Positions 8,704 through 59,119 of a DNA stretch of 64,000 bases are shown one piece after another. The stretch's first letter is position 1, and each line of letters begins with the position of its first letter. This stretch comes from Acidobacteriota bacterium (lineage in GTDB: Bacteria; Acidobacteriota; Thermoanaerobaculia; Multivoradales; UBA5704). A program made the position numbers and the translations under genes. Below the pieces are notes generated by a model, which saw only the letters and a list, made by a program, of their open reading frames with translations, searched no databases and was not told where the DNA came from. The stretch covers positions 63,524 to 127,523 of the forward strand of contig JBKPTH010000003.1 in NCBI GenBank assembly GCA_046765915.1, in the 5' to 3' direction.

Positions 8704-8807
8704 AGCATCCCTGATCGGCGCGGCCCGCCTCCGCCGGTGGCGAGGCGGGCCGGCCGCCGGCCGAGTATGAAAAGATCCGAGCCCTCTCGTTCCTCGATGG
8801 AGGCTCC

Positions 8808-9605
8808 ATGATCTCGAAGCGAGCCGTTTTCTGGATGATCCTGGCGCTGGCGTCGCTGCCGGCCTTGGCGCACGACACCTGGCTGCTGGCCCGGAGCGGC
8901 GCCGTGGTGCCCGGCACCGCGGTCATCCTGGACCTGACGAGCGGCATGGCGTTCCCGGCCAACGAGACGGCGATCAAGCCCGAGCGTATCTCCCGGGCGG
9001 CCGGCCGGCTGGCGGGAGAGACTTCAGATCTCAAGGATCGGCAGACCGCCGCCAAATCCCTCGAGCTCACCGCGCGGTTGTCCAAGCCGGGCGTGGCGTC
9101 CTTGTGGGTCGAGCTGGCGCCGAAGTCGATCGACCTCACGCCGGAGCAGGTGAAGGAGTACCTCGACGAGATCGGCGCGCCCGAGGCGGTGCGGCGGGCG
9201 TGGGCCGCGATGCCGGCGCCGCGGCGCTGGCGCGAGCTGTACTCCAAGCACGCGAAAGCCTACGTGCGCGTCGGCGAGCCCGCGGACGACCGCTCCTGGG
9301 CCGAGCCCGTGGGCATGGGGCTGGAGATCGTGCCGGAGAAGGACCCGACGGCGCTGCGCCCCGGCGACGAGCTGCCTGTCCGCGTGCTGCGGAACGGCCA
9401 GCCCTTCGCCTCGTTCGCGGTCGGCCTCGTCGGCCCAGGAAACGCGCAGGGTGTTCTCAAAACGACGGACGATCAAGGGCGCGCGATCTTCCCCATTGGC
9501 AAAGCCGGCCGCTGGCTGCTGCGCGCCACCGACGTGCGGCGCTCCGCGAAGCCCGAAGCGGACTGGGAGAGCGACTTCACGACGGTGACGTTCGAGGTGC
9601 GGTGA
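8808..9605 (+). CDS. Periplasmic protein with signal peptide, DUF4198-like (family assignment tentative).
   Basis: 265 aa. Signal peptide followed by AHDTWLL... The HD-TW start of the mature protein is reminiscent of DUF4198 metal-uptake-associated proteins. Confidence 0.55.
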   Translation: MISKRAVFWMILALASLPALAHDTWLLARSGAVVPGTAVILDLTSGMAFPANETAIKPERISRAAGRLAGETSDLKDRQTAAKSLELTARLSKPGVASLWVELAPKSIDLTPEQVKEYLDEIGAPEAVRRAWAAMPAPRRWRELYSKHAKAYVRVGEPADDRSWAEPVGMGLEIVPEKDPTALRPGDELPVRVLRNGQPFASFAVGLVGPGNAQGVLKTTDDQGRAIFPIGKAGRWLLRATDVRRSAKPEADWESDFTTVTFEVR

Positions 9606-10824: not shown

Positions 10825-11070
10825 CAACCCGTCAGTTGGACTCTCCAACCCGCCGGTTGCGCTCTCCAACTCGCCAGTTGAGATCTCCAACCCGTCGGTT
10901 GCGCTCTCCAACCGGCCAGTTGGACTCTCCAACCCGCCGGTTGGGCTCTCCAACTCGGCGGTTGCGCTCTCCAACCCGCCGGTTGGGCTCTCCAATCCGC
11001 CGGTTGGACGGCTCAACTCGCCGGTTGGAAGCCCCAACTACTCAGTTGAAGAGTCCAACTCGCGAGTTGC
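10825..11070. repeat. 21-bp tandem repeat array, ~11.5 copies (consensus CCGCCGGTTG[CG]GCTCTCCAAC).
   Basis: Direct reading: ccgtcagttggactctccaac / ccgccggttgcgctctccaac / tcgccagttgagatctccaac ... with progressive degeneration toward the 3' end. Period 21 = 7 codons. It encodes SPTRRLR heptads on the + strand and LESPTGG heptads on the - strand. Confidence 0.9.
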
Positions 11071-12004
11071 CCGGCCTCATGATTCCCGCCTTGTACTGAA
11101 TCGCCTCCGCGAGATGCGCGGCGCGGATGGCATCGCTCCCTGCGAGGTCGGCGACGGTCCGGGCGACTTTGAGGGCGCCCGTCACCGCACGGACCGAAAG
11201 TCCGAGCTTCTCGACGGCCTGGTCGCGGAGGACGCTACCGGCAGGGTCGAGGCGGCAATAGTGTTGGCTCGCGGCTGAGGCGAGGGAGGCATTGAGCCGG
11301 CCGCAACGCTCCTGCTGGATCCTCCGGGCAGCGGCCACCCGGCGGGCCACGGTCTCGGAACACTCTCCGGCGCTGGATCTCAACTCCTTGAGGCTGACGT
11401 GCGGCACCGGCACGACGAGGTCGAGCCGGTCGAGCATCGCTCCGGAGATCGGGCTGAGGTAACGGGCGACCGCGCGCGGCGAGCATCGGCACGGTTCCTC
11501 ATGACGCCAGCCGCAAGGGCAGGCGTTCATCGCGGCGATCAGGAGGAACCGCGCCGGCAAGGTTCGGCTCCGCCGCAGCAAGGGCACCGTCACGGTCCCG
11601 CGCTCCAGCGGCCCGCGCAGCCCGTCGAGCACCTTCCGCCGGAAAAGCGGCAGCTCGTCGAGAAAGAGCGTCCCGTAATGGGCGAGACTGACCTCGCCCG
11701 GCTTCCCTCTGCCGCCGATCATGCCGGTCGGAGTCGTGGCCGGCGGCGGCCTGCGGAACGGCCGGCGGGGATTCGGCGGCGCGCCGTTCCGGCTCAGGGC
11801 GTAGATCCCGGCCACCTCGGCGGCCTCTTCGTCCGTCAACGGCGGCAGCAAGGAGGGCACCCTCTCCGCCAGCATGGTCTTGCCGGCGCCGGGCGGCCCC
11901 ACCATCAACAGGTGATGACCCCCTGCCGCCGCCACCTCCAACGCCCGCTTGGCGGTTTCCTGTCCGCGCACCTCGGCAAGATCCGGTAGCAGGCTCCGCT
12001 CCAC
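11042..12004 (-). CDS. YifB/ComM-family Mg-chelatase-like AAA+ ATPase lacking the N-terminal Lon-like domain (GTG start).
   Basis: Collinear with the E. coli YifB AAA+ region onward: VRGQETAKRALEVAAAGGHHLLMVGPPGAGKTMLAERVPSLLPPL, SLAHYGTLFLDELPLF, ARFLLIAAMN, LSVRAVTGALKVARTVADL, AIQYKA. The ~180-aa N-terminal domain is absent. The tail overlaps the first units of the 21-bp repeat. Confidence 0.8.
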   Translation of the reverse strand: MERSLLPDLAEVRGQETAKRALEVAAAGGHHLLMVGPPGAGKTMLAERVPSLLPPLTDEEAAEVAGIYALSRNGAPPNPRRPFRRPPPATTPTGMIGGRGKPGEVSLAHYGTLFLDELPLFRRKVLDGLRGPLERGTVTVPLLRRSRTLPARFLLIAAMNACPCGWRHEEPCRCSPRAVARYLSPISGAMLDRLDLVVPVPHVSLKELRSSAGECSETVARRVAAARRIQQERCGRLNASLASAASQHYCRLDPAGSVLRDQAVEKLGLSVRAVTGALKVARTVADLAGSDAIRAAHLAEAIQYKAGIMRPGNSRVGLFN

Positions 12005-12005
12005 T

Positions 12006-12248
12006 TCAGGAGTGAATCCTCTGGAGGAGGCCGTCCAGCTCGTCGAGCTTCCGGAGGGCGGGCTCGAGGTCGTCCGTGAGCAGACACTCCATGGTGCCCA
12101 GCAGATCCGTCTCAGGATCTTCCATCTCGTCCTCGGGGACTTCGGGCTGCTGCCGCCGCAGGAAGTCCCGCGCCTCGCGGCCGAAGTCGCTCATCTCCTG
12201 CTTCAGCCTGCGCGCTCTCTCTCGAAGCTCTTCCGCTCGTGTCTCCAT
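12006..12248 (-). CDS. Small acidic coiled-coil hypothetical protein (80 aa). Its stop abuts the GTG start of the YifB-like gene.
   Basis: GGAGGAGGAC-ATG start. TGA-a-GTG coupling to the downstream gene. Highly charged sequence METRAEELRERARRLKQEMSDF... Confidence 0.5.
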   Translation of the reverse strand: METRAEELRERARRLKQEMSDFGREARDFLRRQQPEVPEDEMEDPETDLLGTMECLLTDDLEPALRKLDELDGLLQRIHS

Positions 12249-30167: not shown

Positions 30168-32660
30168 ATGCTCACTCCGATGAGACAGGCGCAGACGCCG
30201 GCGGGAACAGCGAAGTCGAGACTTTTTTCGGCCGCCCTGCTGAGCGCCGTCCTCCTCGCCGGCGCGCCGGCCGCGGCGCAGTCCATCGACGAGGCGATCT
30301 CCCTGCACGCCGCGGGACGGCTGCGCGAGGCGTTGCGCGCGTACCGGTCGGTGGCCGCGGCCACCGCCGGCTCGGATCCCGCCGCGGCGGCCACGGCGCT
30401 CAACAACGCCTGCGTCCTCCTCGGCGATCTGGGAGATTTCCGCGCCGCGCTCCCCGACTGCCGGGAGGCCTTGCGCCTGCGCCGCGTTCTCGGCGATCCG
30501 GCGGCCGTCGCCGAGACGCTCAACAACTTGGGGCTGACGCTCGAAGCGCTGGGCCGGCCGGACGAGGCGGAGCCGCCGTTCCGCGCCGCCCTGGCGCTCA
30601 ACCGCAAGCTCGGCGACGCCGAGGCGCAGGCCATCAACCTGGGGAACCTCGCGGCCCTCGCCCTCACCCGCGGCCGCTACTCCGCGGCGATGCGGCTCTA
30701 CGTCGAAGCCGGGGATCTCGCGGCGCGGCACCGCGGCGAGCCCTGGGCGGCCGGGCAGCGGGCCATCGCGCGCATCAACCAGGGCGTGGTCTTCGAGAAG
30801 ATGGGAGCATTCCGCGAGGCGCTCGGCCTCTACAAGGAGCTGCTCGCCGGCAGCGAGGCCCTGGAGCCGCGGCGGCGCGCCGCCCTGCTCGTCAACGCGG
30901 GGGTGATCCAGCGCAACCTGGGAGATCCGGTGAGCGCCGTGGCCGCCTTCCAGGAGGCCGTCGCCGTCTTTCGCCGCGGCGGGGATCTGGCGGGGCTCTC
31001 GAACGCGTTCCTCAACCTCGGCCTCGCGCTGCATCTCAACCTCGAGCGGCCGGCGGAAGCCGAGGCGGCGTACCGCGAAGCGCTCGCGCTGGCCCGGCAA
31101 AGCGGCGACCGCACGGAGGAGATCCAGGACCTCTTCTATCTGGGCCGCCTCCTCGTGGCGCGCCGGCGGCTCGCGGAGGCGGAGGAGGTCTACCGCCATT
31201 GTTTGGCGGCGGCGCAAGAGAGCGGCTCGGCGGAGGGCCTGTGGTCGGCCCGCGAAGGGCTGGGCCGGACGGCCGCGGCGCGCGGGGATCTCGCCGGCGC
31301 CCTGGCGCATTTCGAGCAGGCGCTGCGCGAGATCGAGCGGGTGCGGCAGGGCCTGACGCGCGAGTCGTGGCGCGCCGGCTACTTCGGCGACAAGCGCGCG
31401 GTGTACGCGGCCACGGTGGATGTTCTATGGCGCATGGAACGCCGGAGCCGGGGACGCGGCGCCGCCCGCGCTCTGGAAGTGGTGCAGCGGGCCAAGGCGC
31501 GGGATCTTCTCGACGCCTTGGGACCCGGTAAGGCGCCGGCGGCGCCGCTGCGCGCGGCCGAGATCCAGGAGCGGGCCGGGGAGGGGACGGTGCTCGAATA
31601 CTTCTTCGGCGAGGACCATCTCTATCGCTGGGAGATCCGCCGGAACGGCCTGCGGATGGCGGATCTCGGTCCCAAGCGGTCGGTGCTGGAGGCCGTCCTC
31701 CGGGTCCACGGCAGCCTGGCCCGCGGCGCCGAGCCTCCGCCGGGAGACGTGGCCCGGCTGTCGCGATCTCTCCTCGCGGCAAAAGAACCGGGAGGTCTCC
31801 TCCGCATCGCGCCGGACGGCCTTCTCCATTACCTGCCGTTCGAAATCCTCGAACGCTCGGGGGTTCCCCTGGTCGAGAGAGCGGCCGTGGTGTACCTGCC
31901 CAGCGCCTCGGTGCTCGGATCGCGGCGGACGGGAGGAGGCGGAACATCTCTCCGCTTGATCGGATTTGGAGCTCCGCGCCAACCGCGATCCGTGCCCCTG
32001 CCGGCCGCAACGCGGGAGCTGGCGGCGATCGGCCGCCTGCTCGGCGGGCGCAGCGCCCTGCTGCTGGGCGAGCGGGCGACGGAGGAGGCCTTTCGCCGCG
32101 CCGTGACCGGCGGCGCGCGGGTGGTACACCTCGCGACGCACACCGTGGTCGCCGAGGGCCCGGGCGGCGGCGCCGCGATCCTTCTCAGCCCCGGCGGCAA
32201 GGACGACGGCCTGCTGCATCCGGCGGAGATCGCCGGCCTCCGCGGCCGCTGCGATCTCGCGGTGCTCGCGGCCTGTCGCACGGCCCTGGGCTCCGGCGAG
32301 GAGGGGCGGGCCCTGGCCTCCCTCACCGGCTCGTTCCTCGCCGCGGGCTCGCGGTCCGTGGTGGCGACGCTGTGGGACGTCGGAGACGCTGCGACCGCCG
32401 TCTTCATGGAGCAGCTCTACGCGCAGCTCGGAGGCGGGCAGACTCCGGCCGAAGCCCTGCGCCAGGCCAAGCTGCGGCTGCGCGCCGATCCGCGGTGGAA
32501 CCGGTCCGCCCTCTGGGCCGGTTACGTCCTGGTGGGGGAGGGTCCGCGCGTGGCGCCGCGGCGCTGGCCGTGGGAAGCGGCCATGGGGGTCCTCTTAACG
32601 CTGGGCGGGCTCGCGGCCCTCCTCCTCAGCGGAAGGCGAGGGCGCCGTTCTCGATCTTGA
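30168..32660 (+). CDS. TPR-repeat + CHAT (caspase-like) domain protein with signal peptide and C-terminal hydrophobic anchor.
   Basis: N-terminal TPR repeats (LNNLG..., LGNLA...). The C-terminal CHAT domain carries a His/Cys dyad context HLATHTVVAEG ... CDLAVLAACRTALG. The tail WEAAMGVLLTLGGLAALLLSGRRGRRSRS is a TM helix plus basic residues, resembling a C-terminal sorting signal. Confidence 0.75.
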   Translation: MLTPMRQAQTPAGTAKSRLFSAALLSAVLLAGAPAAAQSIDEAISLHAAGRLREALRAYRSVAAATAGSDPAAAATALNNACVLLGDLGDFRAALPDCREALRLRRVLGDPAAVAETLNNLGLTLEALGRPDEAEPPFRAALALNRKLGDAEAQAINLGNLAALALTRGRYSAAMRLYVEAGDLAARHRGEPWAAGQRAIARINQGVVFEKMGAFREALGLYKELLAGSEALEPRRRAALLVNAGVIQRNLGDPVSAVAAFQEAVAVFRRGGDLAGLSNAFLNLGLALHLNLERPAEAEAAYREALALARQSGDRTEEIQDLFYLGRLLVARRRLAEAEEVYRHCLAAAQESGSAEGLWSAREGLGRTAAARGDLAGALAHFEQALREIERVRQGLTRESWRAGYFGDKRAVYAATVDVLWRMERRSRGRGAARALEVVQRAKARDLLDALGPGKAPAAPLRAAEIQERAGEGTVLEYFFGEDHLYRWEIRRNGLRMADLGPKRSVLEAVLRVHGSLARGAEPPPGDVARLSRSLLAAKEPGGLLRIAPDGLLHYLPFEILERSGVPLVERAAVVYLPSASVLGSRRTGGGGTSLRLIGFGAPRQPRSVPLPAATRELAAIGRLLGGRSALLLGERATEEAFRRAVTGGARVVHLATHTVVAEGPGGGAAILLSPGGKDDGLLHPAEIAGLRGRCDLAVLAACRTALGSGEEGRALASLTGSFLAAGSRSVVATLWDVGDAATAVFMEQLYAQLGGGQTPAEALRQAKLRLRADPRWNRSALWAGYVLVGEGPRVAPRRWPWEAAMGVLLTLGGLAALLLSGRRGRRSRS

Positions 32661-41715: not shown

Positions 41716-44463
41716 CTAGCTCGCGCCTTTGGCAGATCTGCGGGAGTCGAGGAGGGCCCGGAACTCCGGGTCCTCCTTGAAGGAGCGGAACTCGGGGATC
41801 GTGAACCACTCCCTCCGCAGACCTTTTTTGAGGGCGAGCAAAGCGTAGTAGCGGGCCGACACGCGGTCTCCGAGGAGCGCATAGAGCTGGGCCGCTTGGT
41901 TGAGGACTTGGACGTCCTCTGGTCTTTGTTTAAGCACTTCGTCGGCGATCTGTTCTGCGTCGGCCCCGTTGCCCGTCCGCGCGAGGCACTGCGCGTACAG
42001 CATGCGAGTGCGCGCATCTAGGAAAGGTGGTCCGGCGGCTAGTTCCTTCGCTAGGGTCCCATATAGGCGCCGCGCTTCGACAAGGTCTCCCTGGGCTTCG
42101 AGCGCAGTGGCCAGATTGAAGCGGGTCAGGAGGTGGCTAGGCTTCAAGGCGAGAGCCCGGCGGTATGCCTCGGCGGCCCCTGCATAGTCGCCGAGGAGGA
42201 AGCGGACGAAACCGAGATTCGTAAAGTAAGGGCGCGTTGGCCGGACGCGGATCAGCCTTTCGTACAGCGTCATGGCGCGCTTCAGGTCTCCGAAGCCTAC
42301 CTCCAGCGCCGCTATGTTCTCCAGTACGAACTGGTTGTCTGGTTGCGCCGCCAAGAGACCTTTAAGGCGAAGTTGGGCGCTGTCGCTCGCACCCAAGCGG
42401 AATTCAAGCGTTGCTACTTCCAGGATGTTGCGCCAGGTGGGCCGTCGGTGGGCGACTTCCTCTCTTAGATGGAAAGCCTGTTCCAACTCTCCCTGGGCCT
42501 CCAGGAGGTCGGCCCTGGCGCTCTGCACACGCGCGTCGCCGGGAGCCAGCTTCTCCAGCCGAGCTAGCGTAGTACTCGCCGCGTCGAGCTGCGCTGCCTC
42601 CAATTCGATTCGGATACGGGTGAAGAGGACCCCTGGATCATAAGGGGCGGTTTTCTCAGCTCGAGCCACATAGCCGAACGCTCGACCAAGGGTTCCTTGG
42701 TTGCGCGCGATGCCTGCAGCAAGCAAATAAGCGCCGACCAGGCCAGGTGAGGCCCGCAGTAGAGAATCCAACCGGGCAAGCTCGTCGTTTCCGAGACGTT
42801 CTCCGCGGTCAACCCGGTGCTCTAGCTGAATGTAAGCGGAATAGTCCTGGGGTCTAACTTTTCCGCTTGGCGATCCCGACCGGAGAGGATGGTCGGAGTA
42901 GATCTGCTGTACGTTGGCTCGCACTCCCTCAGCGAGCTGATGGGCGTTCTCGATACCCATCTGGACTTCGAATGGCCCGACCGTGGCCAGAACCTCACCT
43001 CCGAGCTTGCGGAGACGGCGGAAGACGACATGACACCAATCTCCCTGGCAGTTGAGGCGGGGGAGGAGCACCTCGTCCGCTTCCGCGGCGCGCAGTCTCT
43101 CGATTTCAGCGCCGCTCTTCTCATTCCGCTCGGGTGGATCAAGGGGCTGCAGACTCTTGAGGGAGACGAGCGTGGCGAGGGTTGCTTCCATCACGTCAGA
43201 GGCAACGAAGGAAAGCTCCGCATCTTTCCCGACTGACTTCACAACCGGGCGCAAGACCGCCACCCGCACTGGTGGCTTCGATGCGAGGCGCCAGGGTCGC
43301 CACAAGAGGACAATGATGAGTGCGCTGATTGCCAGCGCCGCAGTGACGAGGCCCTTCCACAGCCCTTTCCTGCTGGGGCGACGGAGAGTCGCCGACCCTT
43401 TCGGCAACTCCTCCGATTCGAGATCGGCCAGGAGCTCCGCGGCGTTTGCATAGCGCTCGGCCCGGTCTTTGGCCAATGCTCGGTCGACCACGCGGGCCAG
43501 ATCCGGCGGGCGGCCGCGCTTCAGCGGTTCAGGCTCATGGGTCAGGATCGCTGAGACCACCGCTTCCATGCTCTCGCCGTTAAAGGGTCGCTGGCCGGCG
43601 ACCATCTCATACAGCAGCACCCCCAGCGACCAGACATCAGTGCGGCTGTCCACCGGCTCGCCACGGATCTGCTCGGGAGACATGTAGGCGGGCGTTCCCC
43701 AACTTGCGCCGGTGCGGGTGAGGGAGACTTCGTCGCCCTTCAGGCGTGCGATGCCGAAGTCGAGGATCTTCGCCTCGCCGCGACGAGTCAGCATCACGTT
43801 GGCCGGCTTGATGTCGCGGTGGACGATCCCGGCTTCGTGAGCGCGCGCCAGGCCTCGCGCTATCTGGATCGCCACCTCCCGGGCCTCCGCGAGCGGCAGC
43901 GGCCCGCGCCGGATCCTCTCCCGCAGCGTCTCTCCCTCGTAGTAGGACAGGACGATGTACAGGCGGCTATCGCTTTCGCCGACATCGTGGATAGTGCAGA
44001 GGTTGGGATGGTCGACGGCCGCCGCGGCCCTCGCCTCACGAAGGAACCGCTCTTTCGCCTTGCGATCTCGGCTGAATTCCGGCGGCAGGACCTTGACCGC
44101 CACACGGCGTCCGAGCCGCGTGTCCTCCGCCTCGTAGACTGTTCCCATGCCGCCACCGCCGATCTCGCGGAGGAGCCGGTACGGTCCCACCTGGCGGCCT
44201 ACGAGATCCGTCACGACCTCGTCCTCGTCGGCCTCGTCACCGAACAGATCCGCGGCGTAGTCGCCAGCCGGCACACCGAGAAAGCTGCCGGCCTTCGCGT
44301 CTGCTACTAGGAGGGCTTCGACCTCTGCACGTAGGTCCGAATCGCCGGCGCAAGCTTGGTCGAGAAGAGCGCTGTGCTCCTCAGGGGGAAGATCCAAGAC
44401 AAGGTCGAGAATCGCTTCGATCCGCCGCCAGTGGGCGACATCCGTCGGCGAGTCTGTCCTCAT
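41716..44463 (-). CDS. Ser/Thr protein kinase with TM segment and C-terminal TPR repeats.
   Basis: Hanks kinase motifs GGGGMGTVYEA, VAVKVL, HRDIKPANVML, DFGIA, GTPAYMSPE. TM ALAISALIIVLLW. TPR-like C-terminal half. The start overlaps the upstream sigma stop (ATGA). Confidence 0.9.
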   Translation of the reverse strand: MRTDSPTDVAHWRRIEAILDLVLDLPPEEHSALLDQACAGDSDLRAEVEALLVADAKAGSFLGVPAGDYAADLFGDEADEDEVVTDLVGRQVGPYRLLREIGGGGMGTVYEAEDTRLGRRVAVKVLPPEFSRDRKAKERFLREARAAAAVDHPNLCTIHDVGESDSRLYIVLSYYEGETLRERIRRGPLPLAEAREVAIQIARGLARAHEAGIVHRDIKPANVMLTRRGEAKILDFGIARLKGDEVSLTRTGASWGTPAYMSPEQIRGEPVDSRTDVWSLGVLLYEMVAGQRPFNGESMEAVVSAILTHEPEPLKRGRPPDLARVVDRALAKDRAERYANAAELLADLESEELPKGSATLRRPSRKGLWKGLVTAALAISALIIVLLWRPWRLASKPPVRVAVLRPVVKSVGKDAELSFVASDVMEATLATLVSLKSLQPLDPPERNEKSGAEIERLRAAEADEVLLPRLNCQGDWCHVVFRRLRKLGGEVLATVGPFEVQMGIENAHQLAEGVRANVQQIYSDHPLRSGSPSGKVRPQDYSAYIQLEHRVDRGERLGNDELARLDSLLRASPGLVGAYLLAAGIARNQGTLGRAFGYVARAEKTAPYDPGVLFTRIRIELEAAQLDAASTTLARLEKLAPGDARVQSARADLLEAQGELEQAFHLREEVAHRRPTWRNILEVATLEFRLGASDSAQLRLKGLLAAQPDNQFVLENIAALEVGFGDLKRAMTLYERLIRVRPTRPYFTNLGFVRFLLGDYAGAAEAYRRALALKPSHLLTRFNLATALEAQGDLVEARRLYGTLAKELAAGPPFLDARTRMLYAQCLARTGNGADAEQIADEVLKQRPEDVQVLNQAAQLYALLGDRVSARYYALLALKKGLRREWFTIPEFRSFKEDPEFRALLDSRRSAKGAS

Positions 44464-45062
44464 CCCGCGGCCTGGCCGCCGAGGGCCTGAAAGAGAAAGG
44501 CTTTGGCCTTGCGCCAGTCGCGGCGCACCGTCCGTTCCGAGGTCCCCATCACCTGTGCCGTCTCCTCCTCGGTCAGACCGGCGAAGAACCGCAGCTCCAC
44601 GAGCCGGCTCAGCCGCTCGTTGAGAGCCGCGAGCGACGTCAGGGCGCGATCCACGGCGAGGACCTCGACGGCGCGCGCCTCGGCGTCCGGATCCGCTCCG
44701 TCCATGTGCAGCTCGTCGAAGGCGATCCGCACCTCCTCGCCGCCGCGTTTCTTCGCCACGCGACGGCGGGCGGAATCCACGAGGATCTGGCGCATCGCGA
44801 GGGCCGCCACGGAGTAGAAGTGGTAGCGGTCCTGCCAGGTGATGCCCTCGTGGTCCACCAGTTTCAGGTAGGCCTCATGCACGAGAGCGGTGGTGGTAAG
44901 CGTCTGTCCGGACCGGCGACGGCGAATCTCCCGGCGCGCCATGACGCGCAACTCGTCATACACCAGGGTCATCAGCCGGTGCGCGGCGCCGCCGTCCCCC
45001 TGGCGAGCTGCGGCGAGGAGGCCGGTGATCTCTCCCGTCGAGCCGAGGTTCTGCCGGTCCAT
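44460..45062 (-). CDS. ECF-type sigma factor of the kinase-associated class (TIGR02999-like).
   Basis: 200 aa. ...ALVHEAYLKLVD... and region 4 LVELRFFAGLTEEETAQVMGTSERTVRRDWRKAKAFL. Immediately upstream of, and overlapping, the STK gene. Confidence 0.8.
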   Translation of the reverse strand: MDRQNLGSTGEITGLLAAARQGDGGAAHRLMTLVYDELRVMARREIRRRRSGQTLTTTALVHEAYLKLVDHEGITWQDRYHFYSVAALAMRQILVDSARRRVAKKRGGEEVRIAFDELHMDGADPDAEARAVEVLAVDRALTSLAALNERLSRLVELRFFAGLTEEETAQVMGTSERTVRRDWRKAKAFLFQALGGQAAG

Positions 45063-45163
45063 GGGCTCCAGAGCTTTCGAGGACTCTGGAGAGAATAGCC
45101 GCGGCCCGGCGGGATTTCAAGCCGGACAGCGGCGCGCAAGGAAGTCGGCAGGCCCAGGGCAGT

Positions 45164-46204: not shown

Positions 46205-47029
46205 ATGATCCCGGCCTGCCAGCCCTCACCCGCGCATCCCGTGCGCGTCCTGCGCGCGGTCGCCGTTCCCGGGTTTCGTTTCGCCCGCTGTGTCCATGAG
46301 GCGGACCTCGGTGAGCATTATCATGAAGTGGCGACTATAAGCATCCTGATCGCCGGCTCCTTCGAGGAACGTTACGCCAGACCGCGCTCGCCCGAGACGT
46401 GCGACCGCTTCGCCGTCCTGTATCGCGCGCCGGGCGAGGTCCACGCCGATCATTATTGCGAGGATGGATGTGACAACGTCAACATCGTCGTGACGGCGTC
46501 CGGTTGGGAGAGCTTCGAAGCCGTCCGGCCCCATCCCGTGCCCGTCGTGTGCCTGCGGCAGGCCGAGCTCGTCACACTCAGCCAACGCATCGTACGGGAG
46601 CTGGACGTCAACGACGCTGCGACTTCCTTGGGCCTCCAGGGATTAGGGTTAGAGCTGCTGGCAAGCCTCTGCAGGAGCGGGACGTTCGGCGCCAGCATGG
46701 TGCAGCCGCGCTGGCTGCGCCGCGTGCGCGACCTGTTGCACGAGCGCTTTCGGGACCAGGAGCTCGAGCTTCGGGCCCTCGCGCGGGAGACGCGGGTGCA
46801 TCCGGCGTCGCTGACGCGCGCCTTCCGGCACGCGTACGGCGTCACGCCCAGCGAGTACCTGCGGACGCTGCGTCTCCAGTGGTCCATGCAGGAGCTGCGG
46901 GAGGGAGAACGGTCCCTGTCAGACATTGCCTTCGAAGCAGGGTTCGCCGATCAGAGCCATTTTTCGCGCGCTTTTCGCCGGCAGTTCGGCACCACGCCGG
47001 GGGCGGTCCGGCGCGGAGCTTCGCGCTGA
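46205..47029 (+). CDS. AraC/XylS-family transcriptional regulator.
   Basis: C-terminal dual HTH: LARETRVHPASLTRAFRHAYGVTPSEYLRTLRLQWSMQEL...IAFEAGFADQSHFSRAFRRQFGTTPGAVRR. Confidence 0.85.
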   Translation: MIPACQPSPAHPVRVLRAVAVPGFRFARCVHEADLGEHYHEVATISILIAGSFEERYARPRSPETCDRFAVLYRAPGEVHADHYCEDGCDNVNIVVTASGWESFEAVRPHPVPVVCLRQAELVTLSQRIVRELDVNDAATSLGLQGLGLELLASLCRSGTFGASMVQPRWLRRVRDLLHERFRDQELELRALARETRVHPASLTRAFRHAYGVTPSEYLRTLRLQWSMQELREGERSLSDIAFEAGFADQSHFSRAFRRQFGTTPGAVRRGASR

Positions 47030-47153: not shown

Positions 47154-47465
47154 ATGAAAAAGTTCCGTTTTCTCCTGGTGATCGGCGGCTGTTGCGGGTT
47201 GTTCCTGGGTCTGTTCCCGTCGGGAGCGCAGGCGCTGGGACGCTGTTCCGTCGTGTGCACGCCTACCGCATCCTGCGATCTCCAGTGCGCGGCGATCGGG
47301 GGCGGCTCGCCGGAAATCACCACCTGCGGCGACTGGGGGCGCTGCGCCGGTTACGCCGCCAGCGATCTCTTCGCCCGCGAGGATTCCACCACTCCGTCCT
47401 TCGACGACGGTCTCACCTGCAGCGCCGTCGGAACCAACGCCGCGGCTCCCGTCGCGGTTCGCTGA
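47154..47465 (+). CDS. Small secreted Cys-rich protein (103 aa).
   Basis: RBS GAAAGGAAATGTC then ATG. Signal peptide MKKFRFLLVIGGCCGLFLGLFPSGAQA. Mature region LGRCSVVCTPTASCDLQCAAIGGGSPEITTCGDWGRCAGY... Terminator hairpin at 47480..47511. Confidence 0.6.
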   Translation: MKKFRFLLVIGGCCGLFLGLFPSGAQALGRCSVVCTPTASCDLQCAAIGGGSPEITTCGDWGRCAGYAASDLFAREDSTTPSFDDGLTCSAVGTNAAAPVAVR

Positions 47466-47538: not shown

Positions 47539-48042
47539 ATGAGGATCCGATCGCGCACCCCCGCTGGAATCATCGTTGCTGTTTGCCTGTCCCTGGGCGG
47601 CGGCTTCGTGGTGGAGGCGCAGGTCCAGAAGGAGGCTGCCGTGACTCATGCGAGCGGGACTTTCGACGTCAAGGTGACCCCGCAGGCGAACGACGAAGTC
47701 GCCGGCAGCGCGACCCTTGGCCGGATGTCCATCGACAAGCAGTTCCACGGCGATCTCGAAGGGACGAGCAAGGGCGAGATGCTCACCGCCATGACGAGCG
47801 TCCAGGGCTCGGCCGGTTACGTCGCGATCGAGCGGGTGAGCGGTACGCTGCACGGCCGCAGCGGCACCTTCGTGCTCCAGCACAACGCCACCATGACGCG
47901 CGGCGCGCCGCAACTGGCGATCATCGTGGTGCCCGACTCCGGCACCGGCCAGCTCGCGGGCCTCGCCGGCAAGATGACGATCAACATCGCGGACGGCAAG
48001 CACTCCTACGAATTCGAGTACACGCTTGCCGCCGCACCTTGA
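47539..48042 (+). CDS. DUF3224-family secreted protein.
   Basis: GTFDVKVTP...GRMSIDKQFHGDLEGTSKGEMLTAMTSVQGSAGYVAIERVSGTLHGRSGTFVLQHNATMTRGAPQLAIIVVPDSGTGQLAGLAGKMTINIADGKHSYEFEYTL matches the DUF3224 consensus as I remember it. Confidence 0.65.
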   Translation: MRIRSRTPAGIIVAVCLSLGGGFVVEAQVQKEAAVTHASGTFDVKVTPQANDEVAGSATLGRMSIDKQFHGDLEGTSKGEMLTAMTSVQGSAGYVAIERVSGTLHGRSGTFVLQHNATMTRGAPQLAIIVVPDSGTGQLAGLAGKMTINIADGKHSYEFEYTLAAAP

Positions 48043-48055
48043 GGAGGTCACGATC

Positions 48056-48709
48056 ATGAAGGGCCAGCTTCGAACCCTCTCGCGATGGGCCGCCGCGGCG
48101 GGGGCCGTCCTCATCCTTGGCTCCCAGTCCTCGGCATGGGCCATGAAGGGACCCAAGATTCCGGTCGGCGACGATCCGTCGATGAAGGAGGGCTCGCCCA
48201 AGCTCGTCCTGATCGAGGTCTCGGACTTCCAGTGACCTTACTGCGGCAAGGGCGCCCGTGAGGTGCTCCCGCAGGTCTACGAGAAGTTCGTGCGCCCCGG
48301 CAAGGTCGAGCTCATCTTTCTCGATCTGCCGCTGCAGATGCACCCCTACGCCTTCCAGGCGGCCGAGGCGGCGGCCTGCGCCGGCGACCAGAAGATGTTC
48401 TGGGACATGCATCACCTCCTGTTCAACAACCAGAACGCGCTCGCTCCCGAGAAGCTCCCGGGCTATGCCGAGGAGCTCGGCCTGGACGTCGCCGCCTTCA
48501 AGACTTGTCTCTCCAGCCGGCGGCACATGCCCGACATCCAGGAGGACATGAGGTTGGCCGAGATGCTCGGCATCACCGGCACGCCGGCGTACCTCTTCGG
48601 CCGCCGGGTGCCGGGCGGCGACAAGGTCGAGATCCTCGACAGCGTCCGCGGCCTGCCGCCTTACGAGGTGATCGAGCAGAAGCTCAACGCCCTGCTGGCC
48701 GCGAAGTAG
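48056..48709 (+). CDS. DsbA-like thioredoxin-fold oxidoreductase with in-frame TGA (48233..48235) at the first active-site Cys position; candidate selenoprotein (U-P-Y-C). The alternative is a nonsense-disrupted pseudogene.
   Basis: ATG at 48056 after GAGGAGGT. Signal peptide MKGQLRTLSRWAAAAGAVLILGSQSSAWA. The N-terminal ORF (track 48026..48235) ends ...KLVLIEVSDFQ-TGA, then in the same frame PYCGKGAREVLPQVYEKFV... (track 48263..48709, GTG-initiated in the track). DsbA-family consensus is [FY]xDFxCP[HFY]C; here F-Q-[TGA]-P-Y-C. See the SECIS-like hairpin 48241..48274. Confidence 0.6.
48241..48274 (+). promoter_or_regulatory. SECIS-like stem-loop beginning 6 nt after the in-frame UGA.
   Basis: Lower stem CUGCGG / CCGCAG (48241..48246 with 48269..48274). 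Asymmetric bulge. Upper stem GCGCC / GGUGC (one G-U pair). Apical loop CGUGA (48257..48261) with G and U about 23-24 nt past the UGA. This spacing is comparable to characterised bacterial SECIS elements. Confidence 0.5.
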
Positions 48710-51119: not shown

Positions 51120-51527
51120 CTAGATGACGCGGATCTCGATAAGGCTCTGCAGCCCCTCGAAATCTTCCATGTTCCGGGTATACAGCGGGAGGTGATTGGC
51201 CAGCGCGGCGGCCGCAATCCAGAGATCCATGACGCGAGCCCGCGGCTGGCGACCGGCGGTCTTGACCGCATGGGCGATGGTCGCGAAGGCTCGGGCTACT
51301 CCGGCATCAATGGAAATCGGTTGAAAGGTCGCCTCGATCACGCCCAGGCGGCGAAGCCGATGTTGCCGCGTCTCGTCATCTTTGGCGGCGAGGACGCCGT
51401 AATGCAACTCCGCCAGAGTTACAACGGAAATCGCGACCTCCTGGGGTAGAGACGCCTCGATGCCGGAGTCCTCCTCGCGCGCGATCAGCACGGAGGTGTC
51501 GAGAAGACCCCGGCTCAACGCTTCCAC
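51120..51527 (-). CDS. vapC: PIN-domain toxin (VapC-like).
   Basis: GTG start. LLDTSVLI (Asp1), TLAELHYG, DLWIAAAALANHLPLYTRNMEDF (conserved acidic residues of the PIN fold). Confidence 0.8.
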   Translation of the reverse strand: MEALSRGLLDTSVLIAREEDSGIEASLPQEVAISVVTLAELHYGVLAAKDDETRQHRLRRLGVIEATFQPISIDAGVARAFATIAHAVKTAGRQPRARVMDLWIAAAALANHLPLYTRNMEDFEGLQSLIEIRVI

Positions 51528-51772
51528 GGGTCTCCAAGGTCCTTCAACAGACCGCCCATATCTCCGAGATCCTCGAAGAAGGTCGGATCAGGACCTTGGG
51601 AGCGAAGGACGCGCAGGACCTCCGTTCTCGGCACCCACTGGCGCTTCTGGTAAGGGCTGAGCACGGCGACGGGACGGCCATCCACGGTGATCGCGAATTG
51701 CTGTCCAGCTTCAGCCTGCCGCAGGATTTCGCCGCTGTGGTTCCTCAGCTCGCGCTGTGCAATCGTCTTCAT
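51515..51772 (-). CDS. Antitoxin (Phd/YefM- or VapB-like, 85 aa).
   Basis: MKTIAQRELRNHSGEILRQAEAGQQFAITVDGRPVAVLSPY... overlaps the vapC start by 13 nt. The long ORF-track entry 51515..53269 is otherwise antisense to the lyase gene. Confidence 0.7.
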   Translation of the reverse strand: MKTIAQRELRNHSGEILRQAEAGQQFAITVDGRPVAVLSPYQKRQWVPRTEVLRVLRSQGPDPTFFEDLGDMGGLLKDLGDPWKR

Positions 51773-55126: not shown

Positions 55127-55738
55127 TCAGTGTTCGAGATACTTGTGGACACAGCCCTCCAGCTTGCGGCGAACGCGGTGAACCCGGATGCGCAGCGCGT
55201 TGAGCTCGATTCCCATCTCCTGGGCGAGAGTCTGCCGGTTCCGGATGTTGTCCTCCCCTTGGTGGTAGCGGAGCATCAGGTCCCTCTCGTTCTCGGCCAG
55301 TTTGGCGAGGCACCGGCGAAGGCATTCGAGGAGGGGATCGTCGGCCTCGGGCACAGGCGGAGGTGGAGGCCATCCGCCGCTCTCCAAAGCTCGGCGTTGT
55401 CGTGAAGATTGCCGCAGAACCTCCTTGTAGACGAGATGGGCAACGCCACAGAAATACCCATAGGGATCGCTCGACCGGAGCTTGACCCCTTCCGCTATAC
55501 GGCGCGAGACGCGGTTGATGGTCTCGTCCGCCAGGTCTTCGGGAGCCTCGCACCCACGCCACTCGAAGAGCCGGATGAGCCTGCGACGGATCTCCTCGTA
55601 GAGTCTGGCCGCCCGGTCGCGGTCGTCCGGATCGAGCTGCGCGAGGAGCGCCTCGAAACCTTCCTTGGTCAAGCCTCGCGGCTGGCGCGGGGGCTTGCCA
55701 TTCTTCCCATTCTCGCCATTCCCTCTCGTCACCTCCAT
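55127..55738 (-). CDS. ECF sigma factor.
   Basis: Start MEVTRGNG... Region 2 (ARLYEEIRRRLIRLFEWRG..., DPYGYFCGVAHLVYKEV) and region 4 (ENERDLMLRYHQGEDNIRNRQTLAQEMGIELNALRIRVHRVRRKL). Overlaps the 3' end of the TPR-CHAT gene by ~10 nt. Confidence 0.8.
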   Translation of the reverse strand: MEVTRGNGENGKNGKPPRQPRGLTKEGFEALLAQLDPDDRDRAARLYEEIRRRLIRLFEWRGCEAPEDLADETINRVSRRIAEGVKLRSSDPYGYFCGVAHLVYKEVLRQSSRQRRALESGGWPPPPPVPEADDPLLECLRRCLAKLAENERDLMLRYHQGEDNIRNRQTLAQEMGIELNALRIRVHRVRRKLEGCVHKYLEH

Positions 55739-58700
55739 TCTCCCTGCAGTGAGAACCCGGCCCAATAGAAGGGCGATCTCCAACTCGGCTTGCGCGCCAC
55801 TTCGAGCTGTGCCTGACGCAGGGCGGCAGCGGGCGAGAGTCCGTCGCGGAGCATGCCGCGATAGAAGGTCGTCATCAGCTCGGCGGTGGCCCGGTCCTCG
55901 ACGCTCCACAGGCTGGCGAGCACGCGCGCGGCGCCGGCGTACATGAAGCCGCGCGTCAGTCCCACCAGCCCCTCGCCGCGGATCTCTTTGCCGAGGGCTG
56001 TCTGGCAGGCCGAGAGCACGACCAGGTCGGCCCGAAGGCGGAGGCTGTAGATGTCGCTGAGCCGCAAGTATCCATCCTGGTGTTGGCCGTTCTCATCGTA
56101 GAGGGACATCACCAGACGCGAGAGCTCCGGACGCTCGGTTTCGATGACACCGTGGGTGGCGAAGTGAACGGTGCGGAAGAGATTCAATCTGCCGTCCGTC
56201 ACGGCGGACCGCGAGGCGGCACAGCCTACCGCCTTGAAAACCTCTTCCGGAGGAAGGAGCGCCGCGATCGCGTCCGCCTCTTTCCCCGAAGCACGCAGAC
56301 GGCGAAGATCGGGTTCCACGGTCGATTCCGGAGCCTGGCCTCCCCGCGTTTGTTCCACGGATGTGGATGGCAGCGCGGACGGCCCTTCCGTGCTTGGGCT
56401 GTGCGAAATCCGCTTGTCGTCCGGCTCGAAGACCGGATCCGCGAAGATGGCCAGCCTCCGGGGTGCCGGCTGCCGGTCGCGAAGCTCGCGCCGCAGCACG
56501 GCCAACACGGAGGCGGAAGGCAGATTCACGATCTCGTGGCCGCTGACGAGAGGTTCTCCAGTCGAGGGGAGAGGCAACGCCGCGAACGGCACGTACTGCA
56601 GCGCGCCGTCAGCCACGATCAGCAGCGGACGATCGCCGAGGAGCGGCTCGGCCGGTTGGAGGATCAGCCGGGATAGGTCGCGGGCCACTTCCTCGACTTT
56701 GAGGTCGGCGGCGCGCCGCTCCTGCGCCGGAGGGCGCCCGCTGCGTACGGTGAGGAGCTGGTAATAGTCGCGGGCCGCCGCTTCGATCCGCGCACGCCCC
56801 GGCAGCTCGAAGCTGGCAAAGGAGTCGGCGGTGACAGCCCAGAGGAAGCTCTTCTCGACACCGAGGGAGTACTCGAGCAGCAGAGCCCCGCCATCCAGCA
56901 CCTGGCGCTGGATCTCCTCCAGGCTGAGGGGCTGCGCCTGGGTGAGCGCGGCATAGCGAGGGCTGCTCTGGCGCAGCTCCACCTGGGCTCGCCGATACGC
57001 ATCGAGGGCCTCTTGGAGCCTCCGCCGGGCTTCCGCCAGCTTCTCGGAGTCCGAGTTTTCCTGCTTCAGCAGCTCACGCAGATGGTAGTCGCGGGCGCTG
57101 AGGTCCTGCCGGGTTTGCCGCTCTCTTTCGAGGACGGCGGGCTCCGCTCCCAGATCGATCTGGGCTTGCGCTTCGTTCAGGATCTCGAGCAGGCTGCGCG
57201 CGCGGGCCCGCTCGCTCGCTCGCAGGGCCTCCGCCGCAAACCCCTCCATCGGCCTTTGTACATGGAGAGCCATCAGGGTGTTCATCTGGAGCTCGTAGAT
57301 CTCCTGCGTGGAGGCCAGGAAAGAGGTCTTCGTATCCGGGTCGACCAGTCGACCACGCCACAACTCGATCAAGTCGAGGATGGGACGGAGCCGCGAGAGG
57401 GTGCCATCCAGGTCGCCGCCTTCCCGGGCCAACCGCGCCAGGTCAAGGTTGATCTCGGCCTCGCGGCCGCGATCTCCCCGCCGGCCGGCGAAGGATAGCG
57501 CCTGCAAGAGCTCGGCTTCGGCGGCGGCTTTGTCGCCCAGATCCCGCAGGACGCTTCCCAGCGCGTAATGCGACATGGCCTGCTCTTCCCGCGTTCCGTC
57601 CAGGCTGACCGCTTCGCGAGCCCAAGCCGCCGCCTGCGTCGGCTGCTCCCCCCGCAGGAGGAGCGCGAGCCTCGCGAGCGCGAAGACTTGGATTTTCCGA
57701 TTCCCGATCTGGCGTCCCAAGGCCAAAGCCCGGCTGAGAGAGTCCCGCGCTTCTGCGAGCTCCCGGCGATGGCTGTAGACGTCCGCCAGATTGATCAGGA
57801 TCGTAGCGGTCATCCCGCGATCACCGGTCGAGACGGTCATGTCCAGGGCGGCCTTGTAACGATCGAAAGCCTTCTCCCATTCACCGAGAACGCGGTGGGT
57901 GCCGCCCAGGTTGGTCAGGATTCTGATCTCTGCCGAGCGGTTGGAGGATTGGCGGGCCAGGGTCAGAGCTTGTGTGTAGAGCCCGAGGGCAGTCTGCATC
58001 TCACCGAGATGGTCATAACCGATCGCCAGATTGTTCAGCACGTTGAACTCTGTCGTAAGATTTCCGGACTGCTGCGCCTTCTCGAGAGCCTGGCGCTGCA
58101 GGTCCACCCCTTGCCGACTCTCGCCCGCTTCGTCGGCGAGCCGGCCGAGGAGGTACAGGTTATCCGCCTGCAGCCCGGCTTCTCCCAACTCGCGGGCCAG
58201 GTCGAGCGCCTGATCGTGCGCTGCTCGGGCCTCCTCGGGACGATTGAGATTCCACAAACAGCGTCCGACCCAGGTGAGCGCTTCGGCCTGGAAAACCCTG
58301 CTCCGGCGGCTGGTCTGACCGCCCCAGTCCACCGCGGCCTGACGGAAGTCCGCTAATGCCTGGTCGGTTGCCGATTTGTAGCGGAGACGGCCAAGGCGGT
58401 AGAGGATCTCCGCGCCCTTTTCCCGGTCGCCCACTTGACGCCAGAGGGTAAGAGCGTGCTCGAAAGATCCGATCCGATCATCCGAGGAGAGGGCGTCCCA
58501 GGTAGCCCGGACCGCTGTGGCCCTCACCTGGTCCGCCTCGGTCGGTTTTCTTGGACCCTCGACTCTCAGGAAGTAACGGCCGGAGCCCTCGCCCGAAGCG
58601 TTCACCTCGAGCCGGTAGGACCCTGGGTTCGCTGCCACGACAGCGAGCTCCTGAGCGTCATCCGCATAGTCGTCGGGTCCTGGGGAATCCGCCCCGGTCA

Positions 58701-58980
58701 CCAAAGTCCCCGCAGGATCGACAAGTCGAAGCGCGAGCTTGACGCCGTTCTCTTCGGCCACGACCCGCAGGAACTGCCCCGTCCGGAGCTCGAAAGGGTA
58801 GACGTGCATCTCGCCGCCGTGGATCTCGCGTTCGATCGGTCGCTGCTGCGCGGTGGAGGCGGCGGTGGGAGAGGGACCTTCCGCGCAGCAGAGCACGGCC
58901 GCGAGGAGTCCGAAGAGGAGCCAGAGCGCGCCGCGGCTGAAGAGCGATGCAGATCGGCGAAAAACGGGTGAAGGCGTCAT
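55729..58980 (-). CDS. TPR-repeat + CHAT (caspase-like) domain protein with signal peptide; first gene of the CHAT / ECF sigma / anti-sigma operon (alternative start 59034).
   Basis: MTPSPVFRRSASLFSRGALWLLFGLLAAVLCCAEG signal peptide. Many TPR repeats (LNNLA/LTNLG...). C-terminal CHAT: HFATHGVIE..., LVVLSACQTALG. Confidence 0.75.
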   Translation of the reverse strand: MTPSPVFRRSASLFSRGALWLLFGLLAAVLCCAEGPSPTAASTAQQRPIEREIHGGEMHVYPFELRTGQFLRVVAEENGVKLALRLVDPAGTLVTGADSPGPDDYADDAQELAVVAANPGSYRLEVNASGEGSGRYFLRVEGPRKPTEADQVRATAVRATWDALSSDDRIGSFEHALTLWRQVGDREKGAEILYRLGRLRYKSATDQALADFRQAAVDWGGQTSRRSRVFQAEALTWVGRCLWNLNRPEEARAAHDQALDLARELGEAGLQADNLYLLGRLADEAGESRQGVDLQRQALEKAQQSGNLTTEFNVLNNLAIGYDHLGEMQTALGLYTQALTLARQSSNRSAEIRILTNLGGTHRVLGEWEKAFDRYKAALDMTVSTGDRGMTATILINLADVYSHRRELAEARDSLSRALALGRQIGNRKIQVFALARLALLLRGEQPTQAAAWAREAVSLDGTREEQAMSHYALGSVLRDLGDKAAAEAELLQALSFAGRRGDRGREAEINLDLARLAREGGDLDGTLSRLRPILDLIELWRGRLVDPDTKTSFLASTQEIYELQMNTLMALHVQRPMEGFAAEALRASERARARSLLEILNEAQAQIDLGAEPAVLERERQTRQDLSARDYHLRELLKQENSDSEKLAEARRRLQEALDAYRRAQVELRQSSPRYAALTQAQPLSLEEIQRQVLDGGALLLEYSLGVEKSFLWAVTADSFASFELPGRARIEAAARDYYQLLTVRSGRPPAQERRAADLKVEEVARDLSRLILQPAEPLLGDRPLLIVADGALQYVPFAALPLPSTGEPLVSGHEIVNLPSASVLAVLRRELRDRQPAPRRLAIFADPVFEPDDKRISHSPSTEGPSALPSTSVEQTRGGQAPESTVEPDLRRLRASGKEADAIAALLPPEEVFKAVGCAASRSAVTDGRLNLFRTVHFATHGVIETERPELSRLVMSLYDENGQHQDGYLRLSDIYSLRLRADLVVLSACQTALGKEIRGEGLVGLTRGFMYAGAARVLASLWSVEDRATAELMTTFYRGMLRDGLSPAAALRQAQLEVARKPSWRSPFYWAGFSLQGEWR

Positions 58981-59119
58981 CCTGTCTTCGATACCTGCAA
59001 CTTCCCCCGAGCGCATCAGAATTAGCGAAGGCACAACCTATTTTATCGCCTCCCGATCATGTCGCGGGACAGAACGGAAAAAGGGCGGAAATGCGGCGAA
59101 TTCGCGCTAAGCTAGCCCT

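Follow-up and report, generated by a model that had tools for sequence, protein, structure and literature searches.

Selenoproteins of the DsbA-like (COG2761) and DsbG-like (COG1651) types, which carry selenocysteine (Sec, U) in a UxxC motif, were predicted in 2004–2005 (PMC1088965), found in Anaeromyxobacter, Desulfovibrio and Desulfotomaculum (PMC1794560) and counted in 41 organisms in 2016 (PMC5029168). A 2026 review lists both types and links the DsbG-like proteins to the NCBIfam family NF041057 (PMC13188914). We analyzed a stretch of 64,000 nucleotides from an Acidobacteriota bacterium of the Thermoanaerobaculia (contig JBKPTH010000003.1; the whole stretch is called the window below), in which a DsbA-like gene at 48056..48709 on the forward strand is interrupted by an in-frame TGA. 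A preliminary description of the gene had named it a candidate selenoprotein, a reading that is supported by conservation of the TGA, by conservation of a hairpin linked to the TGA and by purifying selection downstream of it. Judged from these sequence comparisons, the gene is very likely a genuine selenoprotein gene for a DsbA-type thiol-disulfide oxidoreductase, predicted to be secreted, in which the N-terminal active-site cysteine is replaced by Sec (U-P-Y-C). The earlier remark that DsbA-like selenoproteins had been predicted computationally is borne out by the literature, in which they are an established class (PMC1088965, PMC1794560, PMC5029168, PMC13188914); the recoding mechanism and the existence of DsbA-type selenoproteins are thus prior knowledge that this gene leaves unchanged. 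What it represents is a previously undescribed acidobacterial, non-lipoprotein subfamily within that class, and it would assign both Sec decoding and an exported selenoenzyme to a Thermoanaerobaculia-like acidobacterium. Within the literature that was searched, no paper links selenocysteine to Thermoanaerobaculia.

Two described families come closest. NF041057, the 'Rcas_1661 family thioredoxin-like (seleno)lipoprotein' or DsbG-like family (candidates of Kryukov and Gladyshev), belongs to the same superfamily (Thioredoxin_4/COG1651-type DsbA fold) and shares both the UxxC motif with Sec in first place and a hairpin of the selenocysteine insertion sequence (SECIS) type directly downstream. It is the sole NCBIfam match of the window protein (E 4e-29). 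Because the score of 101.9 bits falls short of the curated cutoff of 190, the window protein is a relative and not a member of this equivalog; its orthologue L091 scores 99.2 bits, and other subfamilies with the motif DFQ-U-PYCG reach 161–174. The NF041057 proteins are lipoproteins, whereas the window protein has no lipobox and comes from an acidobacterial (Thermoanaerobaculia-like) subfamily. DsbA-like form 1 (PF01323, UxxC; Sargasso Sea, Anaeromyxobacter dehalogenans, Desulfovibrio desulfuricans, Desulfotomaculum reducens; PMC1088965, PMC1794560, PMC13188914) shares a PF01323 domain above threshold, UxxC with an N-terminal Sec and a predicted SECIS with G in a small apical loop. Form 1 is, however, defined on COG2761 (FrnE-like), and the window protein is weakly similar to FrnE structures (E 4e-5, a comparison made through those structures and not through the published representatives NIP15863.1 and AACY01178397); it is much closer to the BdbD/MdbA/alpha-DsbA1/ScsC type.

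A DsbA-type frame with UGA at the active site

The coding sequence and its active site comprise the following features.

48056..48709, forward strand: very probable selenoprotein coding sequence with UGA (Sec) at codon 60, based on translation, the Pfam families Thioredoxin_4 and DSBA, about 650 homologues and DsbA-type relatives in the PDB
48233..48235, forward strand: proposed selenocysteine codon UGA (U60), replacing the N-terminal nucleophilic Cys of CPYC, based on the sequence and on TGA in the same column of orthologues
48233..48244, forward strand: predicted redox motif U-P-Y-C (U60 to C63), based on the homologue alignment and the model of an orthologue

Direct translation gave a single frame of 217 codons followed by TAG (48707–48709), in which the sole in-frame stop is the TGA at codon 60, in the context ...EVSDFQ-[TGA]-PYCGKG.... 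The two open reading frames (ORFs) that had been listed separately are therefore one DsbA-like frame split by a single TGA, as first proposed. Both the 59 codons upstream and the 157 codons downstream align to DsbA-like homologues. With Cys placed at codon 60, the 217-residue product matches Pfam Thioredoxin_4 (PF13462; E 5.5e-21, 75.9 bits against a cutoff of 23.2) and DSBA (PF01323; E 2.2e-17, 63.9 bits against 25.6). Its sequence relatives in the PDB are all of the DsbA type, the best being Corynebacterium diphtheriae DsbA (4pwp), whose FSDFECPFC aligns to VSDFQCPYC. In an alignment of 46 homologues (A3), position 60 is Cys in 45 and the lone 'W' is actually a TGA codon, while C63 is invariant. 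All Cys-form homologues have the first Cys of CPYC in this column, which bears out the earlier placement of the TGA at the first Cys of a CPxC active site. Together with a structure model described below, the profile matches show a predicted DsbA-type fold with a U-P-Y-C center.

TGA is otherwise the commonest ordinary stop in the window, ending 24 of 39 confident ORFs, including the gene directly upstream; any recoding must therefore be local and site-specific. When the window was scanned for further in-frame TGAs flanked on either side by coding signal, one other case emerged, at 9603–9605. We rejected it as a selenoprotein, as this TGA normally terminates a DUF4198 gene (8715–9605) and is followed a few codons on by a fatty-acid hydroxylase gene in the same frame with its own ATG.

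A search of a 5.8-billion-protein collection yielded about 650 homologues, mostly full-length (about 217 residues), the named ones coming from metagenome-assembled genomes of Thermoanaerobaculia or Acidobacteria. Among the closest matches, P0041 (94% identical) and P0090 (89%) are annotated as 148-residue fragments. Both L001 (JGI) and L002 (ENA, forest soil), the contigs that encode them, have this TGA too, and the region downstream of it is identical. We found at least 12 TGA forms including the window, with 65–94% amino acid identity to it downstream of the codon. TGA occupies the same column in L001, L002, L091, L097, L120, L141, L167, L180, L196 and L213, and the contigs of these TGA forms were drawn from separate samples in JGI, ENA and Logan; one Logan contig, L204 (SRR20019834), is 100% identical to the window and is not independent evidence. 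Seven orthologues have TGC or TGT at this codon (Cys forms L003, L004 and L205–L209). The orthologue alignment that the preliminary description had called for thus gave TGA in 12 forms with no frame disruptions, beside Cys forms with TGC or TGT, and the PYCG that directly follows the codon is conserved in the TGA forms. The eight complete Sec forms keep the frame open for 155–166 codons past the TGA, with pairwise ratios of nonsynonymous to synonymous substitution rates (dN/dS) of 0.14–0.53 in this part (0.14 for the window against L001 and 0.165 against L002). The part after the TGA is therefore translated and constrained.

On a rough neighbor-joining tree of the subfamily, built without bootstrapping, Sec forms lie scattered among Cys forms, and the two alternate repeatedly. 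The closest Cys form, L003, is 94% identical downstream of the codon and has TGC instead of TGA, a single-base difference. One protein cluster at 90% identity or above (P0152–P0160 and P0001) unites six 148-residue members of the TGA type with four 217-residue Cys members, an assignment checked at the DNA level for L001, L002 and L003 only. In L213 (377–1024), the JGI gene call P0010 shows Trp at the active site; the codon is really TGA, evidently translated with a table in which TGA encodes Trp. As P0010 shows, a 'W' in a conserved Cys column of metagenome protein sets can hide a selenoprotein. A scan of genome contigs with the pattern DFQCPYCG, which requires a Cys codon, returned Cys forms only, the best genome match having 64% identity (Acidobacteria gp7, Holophagales).

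A hairpin linked to the TGA codon

Downstream of codon 60 the following RNA elements are predicted.

48234..48277, forward strand: SECIS-like stem-loop inside the coding sequence, with lower, middle and upper helices, from the RNA fold
48250..48268, forward strand: upper helix GGGCGCC/GGUGCUC, 48250–48256 paired with 48262–48268 after a CAA bulge, 7 bp including two G-U pairs
48257..48261, forward strand: apical loop CGUGA, at +25 to +29 from the U of the UGA, from the RNA fold

The 60 nucleotides from the UGA have a minimum free energy of -24.9 kcal/mol (z = -2.13; 5 of 200 shuffles fold as well). In the minimum-energy fold the lower helix pairs 48234–48238 with 48273–48277 and the middle helix pairs 48243–48246 with 48269–48272. 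An alternative 6-bp stem, CUGCGG/CCGCAG (48241–48246 with 48269–48274), is equally good and is the form seen in orthologues. The coordinates first given for the stem-loop were thus essentially right and its 6-bp lower stem is a valid alternative, but the upper helix has 7 bp and not 5, and the hairpin is larger than described. The G and U of the loop (48258–48259), the presumed SelB contact, had been placed 23–24 nucleotides from the UGA and are nucleotides 26–27, counting the U of the UGA as 1. In the SECIS of Escherichia coli fdhF, G and U stand at +23/+24 in a GGUC loop. Both hairpins lie in the coding sequence directly after the UGA and show a G next to a U in a small apical loop, and each carries a bulge below its upper helix, a bulged U in fdhF and CAA here. 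The two have no sequence similarity, and the predicted element of the window differs in its G/U at +26/+27, its CGUGA loop and its 7-bp upper helix. The hairpin agrees with the bacterial SECIS consensus of a stem-loop just 3' of the UGA with a small G-containing apical loop (PMC1088965).

It is the comparative data, and not the fold energy, that lift this hairpin above chance. A 16-nucleotide core of upper helix and loop, GC-GCC-CGU-GAG-GUG-CU, is invariant in 12 of 12 TGA forms, while the codons flanking it vary (K/Q/E/R/H, G/S), and the Arg codon inside it is CGU, which is otherwise unfavored. Across the seven Cys orthologues, the third positions of the four A-R-E-V codons carry about eight synonymous changes; the core is altered in six of these orthologues and kept in L206. 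In L003 the hairpin region has four synonymous substitutions, and three of them disrupt stem pairing. The 48 nucleotides after the codon fold with -20.8 kcal/mol in Sec forms and -15.2 kcal/mol in Cys forms of the subfamily (one-sided Mann-Whitney p = 0.004, 11 versus 7), and across the DFQ[U/C]PYCG genes collected here the means at equal G+C are -16.5 (118 Sec) and -11.7 (83 Cys; p = 4e-14), both p-values overstating the independence of sequences that are phylogenetically related. Taken together, these sequence comparisons show a constraint at the RNA level that is tied to the TGA in this subfamily. The preliminary description had argued that codon position and hairpin together speak against chance; this holds for the comparison among orthologues and not for the hairpin by itself, at z = -2.13.

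The pattern extends beyond the orthologues. Scanning metagenome contigs at the DNA level for GAYTTYCARTGACCNTAYTGYGG gave at least 120 contigs encoding DFQ-U-PYCG, and all those listed continue past the TGA into a DsbA-like ORF of 140–320 codons unless a contig end intervenes. Among the matches listed, seven belong to the orthologous subfamily of the window (...AREVLPQV...), and one further member, L213, was recognized through its 'W' gene call. Other Sec subfamilies have hairpins of their own, in which a G-containing apical loop starts about 22–38 nucleotides from the UGA and changes in the stem compensate each other (in one example CUGGCGC/GCGCCAG, CUGACGU/ACGUCAG and CUGAGAU/AUCUCAG). The loop CGUGA recurs on unrelated stems in three Sec subfamilies (GCGCC/GGUGC, CCGGCU/AGCCGG and GAGGGUC/GACCCUC) and in two codon phases (A-R-E versus L-V-K); its carriers besides the window subfamily are L086, L108, L109, L127, L132, L170, L173, L179 and a second site in L145. 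Within this cross-subfamily set, 90% of cells are paired versus 65% in shuffles and double changes occur in six of seven pairs, figures that illustrate rather than prove covariation, the set having been picked for pairing and the comparison being partly circular. The CGUGA loop may be a preferred, lineage-spanning SelB recognition motif.

In ten of the loci (L092, L121, L134, L143, L152, L160, L184, L188, L192 and L197) about 320 codons come after the DsbA-like domain with its Sec. In L092, the one that was scanned, the C-terminal part matches cyclophilin-type peptidyl-prolyl isomerases (NCBIfam PRK10791/PRK10903, E ~4e-12), and this looks like a selenoprotein in which a disulfide catalyst is fused to a prolyl isomerase.

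Standard gene calls render these genes as a stub of 59–71 residues plus a 148-residue 'protein-disulfide isomerase' fragment, or read the UGA as Trp. Because gene callers split them or give Trp, public data contain wrong annotations for the window gene and for at least 120 others like it.

Proposed recoding of codon 60 and competing explanations

We propose that the gene is transcribed, probably together with the DUF3224 gene upstream of it, and that at UGA60 the downstream hairpin (upper helix 48250–48268 with its CGUGA loop) would recruit SelB-GTP-Sec-tRNA(Sec), so that selenocysteine would be inserted in place of termination. The 217-residue precursor would then be exported by its N-terminal signal peptide and cleaved after A-W-A at residue 29, leaving a mature protein of about 188 residues, predicted to be a thioredoxin domain with a helical insertion. 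From what is known of the family, this protein may cycle between selenolate/thiol and a selenenylsulfide (U60–C63) during disulfide exchange with envelope proteins; such cycling could serve an oxidase, an isomerase or a reductase. SelB binding and selenium incorporation at U60 are put forward on comparative grounds, the RNA constraint linked to the TGA lending support to recoding by SelB and Sec-tRNA(Sec). The conserved pair of TGA and SECIS likewise suggests that the source organism has Sec machinery, which is consistent with the selenoproteins listed for some Acidobacteria (PMC1794560, Table 2).

Several observations weigh against a selenoprotein. In the 64-kb window ARAGORN found no tRNA whatever and hence no tRNA-Sec, a Pfam scan of about 50 ORFs revealed neither sel genes nor members of any other known selenoprotein family, and tblastn with E. 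coli SelA, SelB and SelD (NC_000913) found nothing. Taken by its fold energy alone, the hairpin is only modestly unusual (z = -2.1). The upper stem is invariant within the subfamily of the window, which is conservation and not covariation, and the relatedness of the sequences and the circularity of the cross-subfamily set, given above with the numbers they qualify, count on the same side. Rfam models, SECIS included, gave no match either over the whole window at the gathering threshold or over 48200–48330 at E <= 10. The covariance-model check suggested in the preliminary description therefore turned out negative; it is weak evidence, since a general model for bacterial SECIS elements is missing from Rfam. 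The only matches, to c-di-GMP-II on the minus strand (16 bits) and to a fragment of HOTAIR, were discarded as noise. When the machinery searches were widened, ARAGORN found no tRNA-Sec in 204 loci (1.8 Mb), and tblastn of the three proteins against all loci returned only two archaeal GTPase matches to the EF-like domain of SelB, which we rejected.

These negatives could also fit read-through that does not involve Sec, in which a leaky UGA-C is decoded by near-cognate tRNAs, stimulated by the hairpin, with Trp or Cys inserted. UGA-C is a weak terminator in bacteria, and the UGA here is followed by C; the window has no Sec machinery and the hairpin no Rfam SECIS match. Trp at the catalytic nucleophile would, however, inactivate the enzyme, and low-level misincorporation of Cys would be no better than TGC, yet TGA is kept across lineages beside Cys forms. 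The geometry of the hairpin and its G/U apical loop fit the description of bacterial SECIS elements (PMC1088965), and the same Sec/Cys pattern defines accepted selenoprotein families. We regard read-through of this kind as improbable.

Still less probable is a recent pseudogene, in which a nonsense change of TGC or TGT to TGA has disabled a formerly intact DsbA-like gene and the hairpin is there by coincidence. Only one base separates TGC from TGA, and L003 differs from the window at exactly that base of the codon; the gene callers' split into two ORFs and the absence of sel genes from the 64-kb window point the same way. The TGA is nevertheless kept in at least 12 forms down to 65% identity, with intact ORFs after it whose dN/dS of 0.14–0.53 contradicts decay, as the doubt about a pseudogene expressed in the preliminary description would have it. 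Nucleotide invariance of the hairpin is limited to the TGA forms, and at least 120 more DsbA-like genes have TGA at the same codon. Comparison of the orthologues has thus largely refuted this explanation.

About as improbable as the pseudogene is a pair of products, a secreted 59-residue peptide that ends at the TGA and a 148-residue cytoplasmic protein re-initiated at GTG 48263. This GTG exists, is chosen by gene callers and is annotated accordingly in public gene calls. The 148-residue fragment would, though, begin too late to include the signal peptide, the first beta-strand or any of the CxxC motif, while the codons between TGA and GTG (P-Y-C-G-x-x-A-R-E) are conserved as protein, and the start called in P0041 is not in a conserved Met-coding context. 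A sequencing or assembly error, or a variant code with TGA as a sense codon, is the least credible account and is refuted: the public call P0010 does give W at the codon, but that W is a TGA translated with another code table, the TGA is present in independent assemblies of different studies, and of the 39 confident ORFs in the window 24 end in TGA, the directly upstream gene among them.

Protein, genomic surroundings and Sec/Cys alternation

For a selenoprotein at this locus, the remaining protein features are as follows.

48056..48142, forward strand: predicted signal peptide of the secretory (Sec) type, residues 1–29, MKGQLRTLSRWAAAAGAVLILGSQSSAWA, with an A-W-A cleavage motif and no lipobox Cys, from the sequence
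48377..48379, forward strand: Cys108, invariant in alignment A3, possible partner of Cys151
48506..48508, forward strand: Cys151, invariant in A3, possible partner of Cys108
48581..48586, forward strand: Thr176-Pro177, the conserved (cis-)Pro loop of thioredoxin-fold oxidoreductases, invariant in A3 and aligned with the GTP of C. diphtheriae DsbA

Inspection by eye of residues 1–29 found a basic n-region, an Ala/Leu-rich core and A-W-A, which makes the product look like an exported DsbA-like protein whose signal peptide is cleaved. There is no Cys in residues 1–59, so the protein has no lipobox, and with a signal peptide of the signal peptidase I type it is taken not to be a lipoprotein. The structure model that we used was predicted by AlphaFold for the Cys orthologue P0001 (L003), which is 90% identical, not for the window protein itself. 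Its mean predicted local distance difference test (pLDDT) score is 89, with values above 95 outside residues 1–29 and below 50 within them, where the model is disordered. Active-site residue 60 immediately precedes helix 61–69, so that the CxxC motif stands at the N terminus of helix 1. Foldseek placed Wolbachia alpha-DsbA1, C. diphtheriae TsdA/DsbA, BdbD, alpha-DsbA2 and ScsC at the top of its ranks for this model (E 1e-12 to 1e-8).

Alpha-DsbA1 (3f4r), C. diphtheriae DsbA/TsdA (4pwp, 7unn), Bacillus subtilis BdbD (3eu3) and ScsC (4gxz) have the same fold (TM score 0.6–0.8) and, like the window protein, place the active-site motif (CPxC in these structures) where helix 1 begins and have a T/V-cisPro loop; the cis conformation at T176-P177 is our assumption from the family. 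These structures all use Cys, in contrast to the predicted Sec of the window protein, and have 20–25% sequence identity to it. The two further invariant Cys residues in its helical domain have a parallel in alpha-DsbA1. Because the helical domain of Wolbachia alpha-DsbA1 holds a second disulfide (title of 3f4t, C97A/C146A), a second, structural disulfide between C108 and C151 is plausible by analogy. No partner oxidase or reductase (DsbB, VKOR, BdbC) was identified near the gene.

Two features lie directly upstream.

47539..48042, forward strand: DUF3224 gene, 167 residues (Pfam PF11528, E 3.9e-47)
48041..48047, forward strand: ribosome-binding site GAGGAGG, 8 nucleotides before ATG 48056, read from the sequence

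The good ribosome-binding site that had been claimed for the gene is thus present, and it overlaps the TGA stop of the DUF3224 gene (48040–48042). This overlap, with a gap of 13 nucleotides between the genes, makes it probable that the two are co-transcribed. ATG 48056 is most likely the real start, although the ORF listed at 48026 begins at an upstream TTG. DUF3224 adjoins the closest Sec forms (L001 and L002) as well as the Cys form L003, with synteny kept in L001–L003; it is the neighbor only in these closest relatives, more distant orthologues having DinB-family or other neighbors. Further upstream on the same strand follow an AraC-family regulator (46205–47029, forward), then a small Cys-rich secreted ORF (47154–47465, forward; 103 residues, gene call from L204) and then DUF3224.

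It is possible, and we offer it tentatively as less than an even chance, that in a soil or forest Thermoanaerobaculia-like population this DsbA-type enzyme, predicted to be exported, exists as a live Sec/Cys polymorphism. In the cluster at 90% identity or above, L003, the one Cys form examined, shows a decaying SECIS. Close Sec/Cys pairs of this kind, with the SECIS intact in Sec forms and decaying in most Cys forms, are a natural test of the worth of selenocysteine in thiol-disulfide exchange. A true polymorphism would provide a natural system for measuring how Sec and Cys differ in their fitness and redox effects when used by a disulfide catalyst of the envelope; it would also show how fast a SECIS erodes after conversion and might track selenium availability in the habitat.

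Elsewhere in the window, gene calls mapped from L204 place a PIN-domain toxin and PhdYeFM antitoxin pair (51120–51772, reverse strand) between genes for a spermidine-synthase-like membrane protein and a fumarase-like protein. Two large TPR-CHAT domain proteins are encoded at 30168–32660 (forward) and 55729–59034 (reverse), and an ECF sigma factor lies beside a Ser/Thr kinase with C-terminal TPR repeats at 41716–45116 (reverse); these genes form a signaling-rich neighborhood with no obvious link to the DsbA-like gene. A Mg-chelatase/ComM-like ORF at 11042–12190 (reverse) is short, with 383 codons from stop to stop and the Pfam domain starting at residue 70, and the adjoining stretch at 12.9–14.9 kb has a weak third-position G+C bias and no Pfam matches. 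Together they may represent a disrupted comM with an inserted element.

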